From the NCBI GenBank assembly GCA_964629455.1, contig CAZVSN010000002.1, positions 1 through 33,029 of the forward strand: a stretch of 33,029 nucleotides of DNA, in the 5' to 3' direction. Under the pieces are notes generated by a model. It saw only the letters and a program-made list of their open reading frames with translations. It did not search any database and was not told the origin of the DNA. This document shows positions 3,032 through 33,029 of the stretch, piece by piece. Made by a program: the position numbers and the translations under genes. Each line of letters begins with the position of its first letter. Position 1 is the stretch's first letter. The DNA is from an uncultured Micavibrio sp. (lineage in GTDB: Bacteria > Pseudomonadota > Alphaproteobacteria > Micavibrionales > Micavibrionaceae).

Positions 3032-4153
3032 GTAAACGGCCATACTAAAACTGGCCTGTAATAAATACCCGCCTGTTGGTGCTTCCCAATCAATCATTTC
3101 GCCAATGGCGTAGGTGTTTGGTATTTTTTTCAGCATAAAATTGTCGGTCAGTTCGTCCCGCGCGATACCACCTGCGCTGGATATGGCGCGATCAATCGGT
3201 GCAATGCTATTTAGAACGAGTGGGTATGATTTAATATGTGTCGCAAGGTTCTGATGCGAAAGAGATTGAATGTTTCTATCTTCTTGTAATAACCCGATAA
3301 CAACTGGAGAGAGTGATAGAGTTTTTCGCAAGTGGTTTGAAAAACTATCGCGCCCGCGTGGTTTGTTTAAAAGCTTTGTCAGTTTATCAATGGATGTATC
3401 TGGTTTTAAATCAAGATTGATGGTTGTTTGATTTTTTTTGTCTATTGAATCGCGGATAAAGCGGGATAGGGCATAGATTCCGCCACCTTCAACACCGTTC
3501 TGTGTGACCATTATTTCCCCCTGAACGCTTTGGTTTTCATGGGTTATAATAACGGGTTTAATTGGGGTTCCTGCGTATTTTTCTTTGAAAACATTTGACC
3601 AATTTGTTGTAAATCCACAATTGGTTGGGCGAAATGGATTTATTTGAATGCCCTGTTCAGTCAATATTTTTGTCCATGCCGCATCAGACCCTAACCGCGG
3701 CCATGATGCACCACCCATGGCGAGGATGGTCATATCTGTTCCCATATCCTGACCTGTCCATTCATAATTATAATGAAACTTTACGCCCAAACTATCCAAT
3801 CGTTTTAACCATGCGCGCAGCAGGGGGGATGCTTTAAAACTTTTTGGGAATACGCGACCTGATGACCCGATAAAAGTTTCTTCCCCTAATTCGCTACACC
3901 AATCGCGTAAATTTTGGGGGGTGAAATTTTCGAGTGCGGGGCGAAGAAAGCTCGCCGCATCCCCATATCGCGCCATAAAATCTTCTAACGGTTCGGAATG
4001 GGTGATGTTCAACCCGCCGCGTCCCGCCATCAGAAATTTTCGTGCAGGTGATGGGCGATGGTCATAGACGGATACGGATAACCCTCGCTCAGCAAGCTTT
4101 TCAGCCGCCATTAACCCTGCGGGGCCTGCGCCGATGATAGAGATTGTTTTCAA
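3014..4153 (-). CDS. HI0933/BaiN-like FAD flavoprotein (NAD(FAD)-utilizing dehydrogenase family)
   Basis: N-terminal Rossmann motif [19 protein letters not shown] followed by [16 protein letters not shown], typical of the HI0933-like family. The TTG start overlaps the etfA TGA stop (TTGA at 4150-4153). The 3' end overlaps the convergent uup by 18 nt. Confidence 0.85.
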
Positions 4154-31271: not shown

Positions 31272-31342
31272 AGTGGAAATTCTTTCTGTTTCAGTCTGTT
31301 ATAGTCATTTTTGAATGTTTTTCCAGTATTTTGGCAATTTTG

Positions 31343-31372
31343 TTGACATAATTTATATGTGTATTCTATAAA
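31343..31372 (+). promoter_or_regulatory. candidate sigma-70 promoter for the 31394 gene
   Basis: TTGACA (31343-31348), an 18-nt spacer, then TATAAA (31367-31372), lying 22 nt upstream of the ATG. It is a pattern match in AT-rich DNA. Confidence 0.45.
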
Positions 31373-31393
31373 CCTCACTATTAAAGGTACAGA

Positions 31394-31987
31394 ATGGCAA
31401 AACAGATACAAAAAGACCGCTATTTAGAATTGGACGGAACTCCAGTAGAGGCCAAAGGACTATGGCGTCATGTGTCCCCGCTTTGTTTGGCCGCTACATT
31501 TGCAACGGCGGCCTTATGTTCAAATTACTACGATGCCTTTCCCCACAAAAATAAAAATCAACACCCGATTACCCCGATGGTCGAAGCATCACTGGGTCTA
31601 CTGTTTGCTAGAGGTTTGAAAGAGTTTCAAAAATATTCCTATGGACGCATTCCATTTAACCGCACCGCCTATGATAAATATATCATTGACACAAAAAAGA
31701 CCACACAGGCAGAAACAATCAACCCCGCGGATAACACTGTCATAAAAAAATCCATATGGGGAAATGGCTATGCCCAAGGGGGATGTCAAAGTTTCATGAT
31801 TGCAACATATGGAATAGCAGATGCAATAAGCTCAGTTCCTCTCCTGTATGATTGCATCACCCATGTTCATCGTCTTCATAAATTAAACAAAGGCGATTGG
31901 ATTATTATTGACCGCAATGACATGAAGAAGGTTGAGGAAGAACAAAAGCAAGAAAACCACTCCCACACCCTCGCCCCTGCCGTCTAA
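31394..31987 (+). CDS. hypothetical protein, paralog 1 of a tandem pair with conserved termini
   Basis: 197 aa. The N-terminus (M-KQIQKDRYLELDGTPV) and C-terminus (KLNKGDW...DMKKVEEEQKQENHSHTLAPAV) are shared with the next gene. It has two or three hydrophobic stretches and no recognised family. Confidence 0.7.
   Translation: MAKQIQKDRYLELDGTPVEAKGLWRHVSPLCLAATFATAALCSNYYDAFPHKNKNQHPITPMVEASLGLLFARGLKEFQKYSYGRIPFNRTAYDKYIIDTKKTTQAETINPADNTVIKKSIWGNGYAQGGCQSFMIATYGIADAISSVPLLYDCITHVHRLHKLNKGDWIIIDRNDMKKVEEEQKQENHSHTLAPAV
31398..31431 (+). repeat. 34-nt direct repeat (5' coding module), identical to 32017..32050
   Basis: CAAAACAGATACAAAAAGACCGCTATTTAGAATT is identical in both genes, starting at codon 2. 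Confidence 0.95.
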
Positions 31988-31991
31988 TTTT
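31928..31991 (+). repeat. 64-nt direct repeat (3' coding module plus stop plus 4 nt), identical to 32562..32625
   Basis: AAGGTTGAGGAAGAACAAAAGCAAGAAAACCACTCCCACACCCTCGCCCCTGCCGTCTAATTTT is identical in both copies by direct comparison. Confidence 0.95.
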
Positions 31992-32012
31992 TCTTAGATT
32001 TATGGATATACG

Positions 32013-32621
32013 ATGACAAAACAGATACAAAAAGACCGCTATTTAGAATTAGATGGTACGCCTGTTGGGGCTGGTTTTTTACGCCGTCTTGTGTCCCCAT
32101 ATTGCTTGGCAGCTACTTTTTGTTGTTCGTCTTATGGGCTTGCTCACCTTGATGAATATTTCAATAAATCAAACACAAAAGAACATCCCGCTTCAGTTCC
32201 GTTTGTTTTAGCTGGTGTAGGACTTATCACAGAAATTGTGAGCAGAGAAAAAATAAAATATATGCTCGGTCTTAAGGTGGGTAAGTTTGATAAGTCTCTT
32301 TACAAAAAATATGTAATTGATGTTAGAGGCGATTTAGAAAATGGAGCTAAGTCCGATCCAAAAGAGGTAGATTCAATAAAAAATATATTGGGATACTATT
32401 CGCTTGCGTATTCTAGCCTTGCGGTTACTGCAACGGCAAATGTTGGTTTCTTGATGTCTCCTTTTCTTTCTCCAATTTTTTATAATTCCATTGTTAACGG
32501 AAAAAGTTATTACAAACTAAATAAAGGCGATTGGGTACTCATTCCTCGTGATGACATGAAAAAGGTTGAGGAAGAACAAAAGCAAGAAAACCACTCCCAC
32601 ACCCTCGCCCCTGCCGTCTAA
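32013..32621 (+). CDS. hypothetical protein, paralog 2 of a tandem pair with conserved termini
   Basis: 202 aa with the same end modules as 31394..31987 and a diverged middle. It lies 25 nt downstream of paralog 1 and is very AT-rich inside (16/60 GC on line 32281). Confidence 0.7.
   Translation: MTKQIQKDRYLELDGTPVGAGFLRRLVSPYCLAATFCCSSYGLAHLDEYFNKSNTKEHPASVPFVLAGVGLITEIVSREKIKYMLGLKVGKFDKSLYKKYVIDVRGDLENGAKSDPKEVDSIKNILGYYSLAYSSLAVTATANVGFLMSPFLSPIFYNSIVNGKSYYKLNKGDWVLIPRDDMKKVEEEQKQENHSHTLAPAV
32017..32050 (+). repeat. 34-nt direct repeat, second copy of 31398..31431
   Basis: Identical by direct comparison. Confidence 0.95.
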
Positions 32622-32625
32622 TTTT
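32562..32625 (+). repeat. 64-nt direct repeat, second copy of 31928..31991
   Basis: Identical by direct comparison. Confidence 0.95.
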
Positions 32626-32715: not shown

Positions 32716-33029
32716 ATGGCTGAACATTTTATTCTGACGACCCATTACAACGGTAAAAGCTTGGTCGTGACAGAGCAAGCCCTAGACGGGAATCCAAATT
32801 CCCCTTTATTTCCCTTTCTAAGCACATATAACCCCGATCACACTGAAAGGCTTTGTGTCTTTACAAATTGGGGAGAAGCTTTTTTATACAAATCGTTTCT
32901 AGCTGTTTGCGCCCAAACTAACGCTCGCCATGAATTGATTGATCTTGCTCTTAAAACAAAGGTGCCTTACGAGGATTTAAAAATTACGCCTTTGCCAAAA
33001 ATGGATAGCATTAAGACTTCCTCTCCCCT
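32716..33029 (+). CDS. hypothetical protein, 5' fragment running off the window
   Basis: The ATG at 32716 is preceded by GGGGAGA (32704-32710). The frame stays open for 104 codons to the window end (MAEHFILTTHYNGKSLVVTEQALDG...). It is absent from the ORF track, presumably because no stop is reached. No recognised motif. Confidence 0.55.
   Translation, partial: MAEHFILTTHYNGKSLVVTEQALDGNPNSPLFPFLSTYNPDHTERLCVFTNWGEAFLYKSFLAVCAQTNARHELIDLALKTKVPYEDLKITPLPKMDSIKTSSP

Follow-up and report, generated by a model that had tools for sequence, protein, structure and literature searches.

Probable short gene-conversion tracts at the ends of an old tandem gene pair, and strain-variable absence of one copy, at the metG-hppA locus of an uncultured Micavibrio

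The stretch of DNA analysed here (the window, 33,029 nucleotides (nt)) is the whole of contig CAZVSN010000002.1 from an uncultured Micavibrio sp. The corresponding metagenome-assembled genome (MAG, GCA_964629455.1) comprises 1.88 Mb in 193 contigs, is 98% complete and originates from a multi-strain wastewater community. Close to the end of the window two adjacent open reading frames (ORFs), termed gene A and gene B in the following, share blocks of identical nucleotide sequence at both ends. The gene order at the locus is metG (minus strand), A, B, an ORF of 120 amino acids (aa), an ORF of 108 aa and the H+-PPase gene hppA (minus strand). The gene pair and its blocks are composed as follows:

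31394–31987, plus strand: gene A, an ORF of 197 aa from an unnamed family of proteins of about 190 aa with four predicted helices
31988–32012, plus strand: A-B spacer of 25 nt, without a promoter-like site
32013–32621, plus strand: gene B, an ORF of 202 aa, paralogue of A
31398–31431, plus strand: putative 5' conversion tract on A, 34 nt, exactly equal to 32017–32050; also the junction at which A is deleted in other strains
32017–32050, plus strand: putative 5' conversion tract on B, the probable donor; the exact sequence occurs in all three B alleles
31928–31991, plus strand: putative 3' conversion tract on A, 64 nt, made up of the final 19 sense codons, the stop and the next 4 nt; equal to 32562–32625
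32562–32625, plus strand: putative 3' conversion tract on B, with 5 differences in 64 nt to the B gene of strain L005 and likewise to that of strain L007 (see below)

A preliminary description of this DNA, based on the letters of the window, had reported the two genes, the 25-nt spacer and the blocks of 34 and 64 nt, and an ORF and exact-match check returned the same coordinates and lengths throughout. Neither block can be extended by a single base on either side. The two proteins share 45% identity. According to a Nei-Gojobori calculation, the proportion of synonymous differences (pS) in the interior of the genes is 0.77, corresponding to saturation, and the proportion of non-synonymous differences (pN) is 0.47. 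Within either exact block, synonymous differences are absent; the pS values of 0.16 and 0.08 calculated for the two block regions are each due to one included boundary codon. At the interior rate, the probability of finding no synonymous difference in the blocks is about 1e-11. The blocks use the same codon at 29 of 31 conserved residues, whereas the interior does so at 25 of 55 (Fisher p = 5e-6). The longest identical runs of the coding alignment measure 57 and 34 nt; in 20,000 column permutations they did not exceed 26 nt, with a mean of 9.8 nt. Judged by a GENECONV-type criterion, the tracts are sharply bounded and longer than chance expects. On the inner side of the 5' block, the six codons of the conserved peptide LDGTPV differ between A and B at six out of six third positions, and the conserved residues KLNKGDW..R.DMK at the other end likewise show synonymous differences, both as described before. 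Moreover, the non-coding DNA upstream of A is dissimilar to that upstream of B within the window. The contrast between homogeneous ends and a synonymously diverged interior, proposed in the preliminary description, was thus borne out by codon alignment and permutation, and the saturation of the interior agrees with its suggestion that the duplication is old.

In order to place these blocks in a comparative context, other haplotypes of the locus are needed, and a search of 5.8 billion proteins retrieved only three. Two Logan contigs, L005 and L006, carry a single B-type gene at the locus and lack A, while L007 (JGI) and L008 (ENA) carry A together with a copy of B that is disrupted by a frameshift of 1 nt. 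B orthologues are thus available as P0002 (83% aa identity, on L005 and L006) and as the frameshifted copy on L007 and L008; the orthologue of A in L007 is 72% identical in nucleotide sequence over the gene body. The flanking genes are 95–97% identical across the three strains, and therefore the window, L005 and L007 represent strains of one species.

The comparison is most informative for the 3' block. Within the window, A and B are identical in this block; the A genes of the window and L007 differ by 7 nt, and window B differs by 5 nt from the B genes of L007 and of L005. These between-strain differences are mostly synonymous (GAA/GAG, AAG/AAA, CAA/CAG, CAC/CAT), and pS between orthologues within the block ranges from 0.33 to 0.42, the latter value applying to the B gene of L005. 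Quartet-informative sites of the block pair the paralogues of the same genome, A with B of the window and A with B of L007, in 4 cases and the orthologues in none. In the gene bodies, 146 sites pair the orthologues and 5 the paralogues (Fisher p = 5e-6 versus the 3' block). The 3' block hence varies between strains and is nevertheless alike within each genome, which argues for gene conversion and not for selection at the nucleotide level. The 3' block also shows polymorphism within the population, since a G>A change at position 32616 (Val202Ile in B) is present in X3 and X4 contigs, in A-less or co-occurring strains.

At the 5' end, the start of window A (31394–31431) shows no difference to the B genes of L007 and L005 and 6 differences in 38 nt to its orthologue in L007, including the encoded peptide (IEKDRYIHL in window A, IQKDRYLEL in L007 A). 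The three B alleles are identical in this region except for codon 2. Since the 5' block of window A matches the B alleles and is unlike the A gene of L007, it points to a conversion from B to A in the lineage of the window, which on the sequence comparison is the most likely direction. In L007 the two paralogues share another 5' tract (GGAGACACACATGGCAAAACAGATA), which spans the ribosome-binding site and the first 15 coding nt. The end points of this tract differ from those in the window, and conversion has therefore been recurrent across lineages.

The preliminary description had left two explanations for the identical ends, recent homogenization by gene conversion or constraint at the nucleotide or RNA level. 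The grouping of the 3' blocks by genome and the B-type 5' block on A decide in favor of the former. According to the latter, the blocks would be functional elements under purifying selection, for instance for translation initiation at the 5' end, whereas the 3' end would hold a C-rich element involved in Rho utilization, stability or small-RNA targeting. In line with this idea, the A-rich 5' block begins with codon 2, in a region where low mRNA structure is generally favored, and it is the same in all three B alleles apart from that codon; at the other end, the C-rich last 16 coding nt show no variation among the five sequences. However, the 64-nt 3' block has 5–7 differences between orthologues, the majority of them synonymous, and L007 A differs at 6 of 38 nt in the 5' block. 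Moreover, the variants are common to the paralogues of one genome, contrary to what such constraint predicts, and the tract edges are abrupt and lie within conserved peptide motifs. The blocks matched no Rfam family at E ≤ 1, and together with their flanks they fold no better than shuffled sequences (z −0.8 to +0.8). Constraint on the nucleotide sequence as the cause of the identity is thus considered very unlikely.

Given that the genome is a MAG of 193 contigs and that the wastewater community contains several strains of the species, the tandem pair or its identical ends might also result from strain alleles that were concatenated or collapsed during assembly. However, the junction from A through the spacer into B (31962–32046) is covered without a difference by a Logan contig of run X1, and it is also present in the JGI and ENA assemblies L007 and L008, which stem from other samples. 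Furthermore, assemblers do not homogenize sequences, and final k-mers or reads are typically longer than repeats of 64 and 34 nt. An assembly artefact is therefore extremely improbable.

In front of gene A a good promoter-like element can be recognized:

31343–31372, plus strand: sigma-70-like promoter-like site, found by eye, with TTGACA at 31343–31348, an 18-nt spacer and TATAAA at 31367–31372

A consensus scan missed this site because it demands a T at position 6 of the −10 hexamer, and overall the promoter and terminator scan gave sites no more numerous than in shuffled sequence. Since the 25-nt spacer contains no promoter-like site, A and B probably form one transcript, and judging from the sequence both would be co-transcribed from the site in front of A. 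The window sequence was found in no RNA runs. The stretch that precedes the start codon of A, together with its −10 element, recurs unchanged in L005 and L006 directly ahead of the body of B.

The arrangement in L005 and L006 thus consists of the promoter region of A followed by ATGGCA, the shared block and the body of B. For a survey of this rearrangement, Logan contigs from eight runs were aligned to the window; runs containing the window sequence derive from wastewater, manure and lake metagenomes. The joint from 31397 to 32017, which skips 619 nt and has 34 ambiguous bases, was found in contigs of four of the eight runs (X2, X3, X5 and X6) from three studies: X2 and X3 belong to the same study as X1, which is the probable source run, X5 is a manure run of another study and X6 a wastewater run of a third. 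In X5 and X6 the depth over the body of A is zero, so that the joint in these runs is not a shortcut in the de Bruijn graph. In X2 and X3, contigs with the body of A occur alongside at depths of 2.6 and 3.6 versus 4.8 and 11.7, respectively, which suggests mixed populations. In several cases the flanks of the A-less contigs are 99.6–100% identical to the window (0 of 263 nt different in X5, 2 of 1058 nt in X2), and therefore a nearly identical strain without A exists. Deletions through the 3' block and chimeric cores were absent from the contigs of the eight runs, and contigs drop rare variants.

Together, at least three structural haplotypes can be distinguished: A plus B, B alone under the promoter of A (with two B alleles), and A plus a broken B. 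Hence the locus is polymorphic, with A present or absent among strains, a junction inside the 34-nt block and highly divergent alleles, in agreement with the polymorphism that the preliminary description had anticipated. The B-only form under the promoter of A is common in natural populations. In the third haplotype, the B orthologues (L007:2367-2974 and L008:65-676) carry a deletion of 1 nt that shortens AAAA to AAA at about the equivalent of window position 32338 and splits B into ORFs of 121 and 84 aa. The JGI and ENA assemblies with this frameshift may share one sample. Strains with a broken B and strains without A give a hint that one functional copy could be enough, and A and B may accordingly be redundant in function.

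The A-less state could instead be ancestral in the clade of the window, with A regained by homologous import from another strain, so that gain and not recurrent deletion would underlie the polymorphism. The haplotypes nearest to the window are indeed mostly without A, and the mosaic ancestry upstream of A (see below) testifies to recombination between strains at the locus. On the other hand, the A-less flanks are so nearly identical to the window in X5 and X2 that a donor hardly distinguishable from the window strain would be required. The junction coincides precisely with the repeat, which a deletion would predict, and A occupies the same position in the more distant L007. A regain of A is thus judged unlikely.

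In conclusion, the identical ends of A and B are probably recent, short intrachromosomal gene-conversion tracts between old tandem paralogues, and the same homology would permit the deletion of A. The pair probably derives from an old tandem duplication, the duplicated gene being lineage-restricted and fast-evolving. Homologous recombination between the two copies would then produce short conversion tracts at the ends, and these would persist where conservation of the protein left enough similarity to seed pairing. The confinement of the tracts to the conserved N-terminal strand and the C-terminal tail is explained by protein constraint, which preserved nucleotide similarity there. The blocks, which are in frame, would also be substrates for unequal recombination: a crossover in the 34-nt block would remove the body of A and the spacer, and an intact B would land under the promoter of A.

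Several observations weigh against this interpretation. The strain comparison comprises three other haplotypes with an A orthologue in L007 only, and the counts for the short tracts are small (4 sites in the 3' block, 6 differences in the 5' block). Despite GC-rich four-fold codons, the 16 coding nt at the very end (CCCTCGCCCCTGCCGT) do not vary among the five sequences, and they may be under a weak extra constraint. As for the deletion, the evidence consists of assembled contigs, and with the k = 31 used by Logan a 34-nt repeat is barely resolvable. In principle, the joint in X2 and X3 could therefore be an artefact of graph simplification, an explanation that does not apply to X5, X6, L005 and L006.

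Apart from the blocks, the gene pair stands out from its neighbors by its divergence between strains. Synonymous (dS) and non-synonymous (dN) divergence were determined as:

metG: dS 0.19–0.23, dN 0.008
gene A: dS 1.02, dN 0.19
gene B: dS 0.39–0.42, dN 0.07–0.09
downstream 120-aa ORF: dS 0.12–0.135, dN 0.01

In amino acid sequence, the family of A and B evolves 10–25 times faster than its housekeeping neighbors. The 122-nt intergenic promoter region upstream of A (31272–31393) is 96.7% identical to L005 and 77% to L007, whereas the flanks, metG and the 120-aa ORF, group L005 with L007. This conflict shows that the variable segment is mosaic and recombinant and that it starts in the promoter region. 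The combination of a high dS with a high dN (dN/dS about 0.2) is consistent with an exchange of old allelic lineages through recombination, with relaxed constraint, or with the two together; elevated dS and dN alone are no proof of positive selection. In another species of the same genus, a family member adjacent to metG (L099, G018:C41:3328-3882) has only about 15% identity to A and B, although the MetG proteins are 84% identical. Either the syntenic gene has diverged at an extreme rate, or it has been replaced by a non-orthologous member of the family.

The layout of constant ends and a variable core had led to the proposal that A and B belong to a family of recombination-shuffled cassettes. 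Programmed antigenic-variation systems of this kind are pilE/pilS of Neisseria, vlsE of Borrelia and msp2 of Anaplasma, in which many promoterless silent donors feed frequent unidirectional conversion into one expression site. A and B resemble them in the constant ends, the variable core and recombination via the constant parts, and a programmed variation system would also be consistent with a strain-polymorphic, fast-diverging locus at which recombination at the blocks is demonstrably active. Unlike these systems, however, the pair consists of two complete, full-length genes with start codons in one operon-like unit. Searches of the MAG with blastn-short for both modules and with the family hidden Markov model on six-frame ORFs found only A and B, so that this fragmented assembly of 193 contigs and 98% completeness contains neither silent modules nor further copies, and other species nearly always have just one member of the family. 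In addition, no chimeric middle occurs in the contigs, in which rare variants are lost, and the rearrangement that was seen is an irreversible deletion and not a reversible switch. The proposal of a shuffled cassette family is consequently not supported, and an expression site with donor cassettes is a most improbable description of the locus.

With respect to the ends, a further comparison is provided by tufA/tufB and the rRNA operons. In these, RecA-dependent conversion leaves sharply bounded tracts in which the copies of one genome resemble each other more than their orthologues in other genomes, and deletions or duplications between the direct repeats are possible. The ends of A and B show the same concerted evolution, and their homology likewise permits deletion. 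In tufA/tufB and the rRNA operons, however, conversion spans most of the gene and the copies are functionally identical, whereas in A and B it is restricted to the ends and the remainder is saturated, because only the ends retain enough similarity.

The closest analogy is found in the bab paralogues of Helicobacter pylori. In babA, babB and babC, regions of N-terminal and C-terminal homology enclose a variable middle, and intragenomic conversion at the 5' and 3' homologous regions gives rise to chimeric or replaced genes and to differences in gene content between strains (PMC4552749). Similarly, A and B combine homologous ends with a variable middle, conversion at the ends and a strain-variable gene content. 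In contrast to A and B, which are adjacent, about 600 nt long and share tracts of only 34 and 64 nt, the Bab genes are dispersed, about 2 kb long and encode known outer-membrane adhesins that undergo CT-repeat phase variation. Moreover, the outcome at the present locus is a deletion and not a swap between loci, and there is no relationship in sequence or fold between the Bab proteins and A or B.

The proteins themselves could not be assigned to a described family. Fourteen family members, comprising A, B and distant homologues, gave no Pfam or NCBIfam match at the curated cut-off or at E < 0.03, and A, B and the distant homologue P0011 gave none against PADLOC and PHROGs at the cut-off or at E < 0.03. 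A sequence-profile search of the PDB returned 0 matches at E ≤ 10. Single-protein searches among 60 relatives likewise found nothing, and distant members surfaced by profiles only: a search of 1.84 billion representatives yielded ten of them, with lengths of 178–204 aa. Across the order, profile searches of relatives detected single copies in 15 of 165 good genomes and in 11 of 70 genera. The closest MetG sequences are 68–71% identical and come from MAGs labelled Pseudobdellovibrionaceae, Bdellovibrionales or Micavibrio. The distant members lie in varying housekeeping contexts (rpsO, CreA/PhaC, metG) without a constant partner gene, and P0011 is again found between metG and hppA. The family tree is too poorly resolved to decide whether A and B are sister groups.

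Within the family, three motifs are conserved, K(N/D)RYLxLDGxP near the N-terminus, (V/I)IDTxP in the center and KxxxGxWxII near the C-terminus; RYLxLxG, VIDTxP and GxWxI are kept in distant homologues. The charged C-terminal tail, often with a hydrophobic-x-hydrophobic-A/S-P ending, is loosely conserved in distant members. Among the endings are TLAPAV, LQLAPNL.., IKLAPQAA, ITLAPAPIKS, LLPAPVPA and IALTPI (window 31968–31984 and 32602–32618, P0008 and L100-L104), and this motif may represent a conserved docking peptide or a degron.

A first AlphaFold2 (AF2) model, calculated from an alignment of 4 sequences, was unusable, with a predicted local distance difference test score (pLDDT) of 49. Using an alignment of 19 sequences instead, a model with a pLDDT of 83 and a predicted TM-score of 0.76 was obtained. 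This model displays helices at residues 29–49, 62–84, 116–144 and 146–171 and three short strands, located exactly at the three conserved motifs. Lysine and arginine residues are distributed asymmetrically, with about 12 on the side of the N-terminus, the central loop and the C-terminus versus about 1.3 on the other side. Accordingly, A and B are predicted to be inner-membrane proteins of four helices with both termini in the cytoplasm, in which the N-terminus, the central loop and the C-terminal segment would each contribute one strand to a small cytoplasmic sheet, followed by a charged, disordered tail. The hydrophobicity of the helices is marginal (Kyte-Doolittle 1.2–1.8 over 19 residues), which speaks against taking membrane insertion as certain. 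Foldseek retrieved generic helical bundles only, the best E values being 0.3 (PDB) and 0.16 (BFVD) with a query TM-score (TMq) of about 0.3 or less.

Immunity proteins of pore-forming colicins and holins are proteins of about 110–200 aa with several moderately hydrophobic helices and fast divergence between strains. In size, moderately hydrophobic helices and rapid divergence A and B are similar to them. However, a significant match in sequence or structure is missing (the PHROG match to a holin, E = 0.055, is non-significant), toxin, lysis or phage genes are absent from the vicinity of A and B, and the three-stranded sheet formed by the N-terminus, the central loop and the C-terminus is not known as a feature of the immunity and holin families. 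The charged tail had been proposed as a possible targeting or secretion signal. A C-terminal signal of the E-block type would require a type IV secretion system, and the genome gave no match to the VirB4/CagE/TrbE family (PF03135) of type IV secretion ATPases, in a search that did not separately cover Dot/Icm-specific components.

Downstream of B, the hypervariable segment is followed by a conserved neighbor:

32716–33029, plus strand: orphan ORF, cut by the contig end and 120 aa when complete in L005; outside the hypervariable segment

This ORF is 96.5% identical between strains. In L005 it is followed by a second small orphan of 108 aa (the two lie at L005:2936-3298 and 3356-3682, respectively), and an orphan of 112 aa (L095:7654-7992) precedes P0011 at the syntenic metG-hppA locus. 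The downstream small ORFs have no Pfam, PADLOC or PHROG match. The start motifs of the three orphans are alike (FILTxxYNG, FILTQKFND and HVLTKQFNG), but pairwise similarity among the 120-, 108- and 112-aa ORFs is not significant (blastp E 0.03–1). They may constitute a second small family linked to that of A and B and, unlike the latter, are well conserved between strains (dN 0.01).

A more far-reaching interpretation would regard the metG-hppA locus as the site of an envelope protein that is hypervariable and subject to diversifying or frequency-dependent selection in these Micavibrio-like bacteria, e.g. as a target of phages or of a competitor's toxin or in contact with prey; the end blocks would then be more than passive remnants and serve as recombination handles to swap, stack or drop divergent cores. 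Strains with A only, B only or both would then retain the promoter, the start, the cytoplasmic sheet and the C-terminal docking tail. The dS of A of 1.0 versus 0.2 in the flanks, the mosaic upstream region, the three haplotypes and the syntenic homologue of about 15% identity are compatible with this interpretation without proving it, and as a whole it is regarded as rather unlikely. For the individual protein, a role as a small protein of the envelope or inner membrane, with variable helices directed at a partner that itself changes (phage, prey or the toxin of a competitor), can be put forward with low confidence.

The mechanism favored here, conversion of short tracts together with deletion between direct repeats, is a textbook one, and in this respect the finding mainly explains away an odd pattern. 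It nevertheless provides a clean natural example of a tract of only 34 nt that would have arisen by conversion and would in turn mediate a deletion, the latter segregating in wild populations sampled by several studies. What is new is the family itself, which is small, lineage-restricted and patchily distributed in the Micavibrio-like alphaproteobacterial order, has no structural neighbor, and is confidently predicted to adopt its own fold in a poorly studied and probably predatory or epibiotic order. Due to their fast amino acid evolution, A and B and their relatives are reasonable candidates for arms-race proteins.

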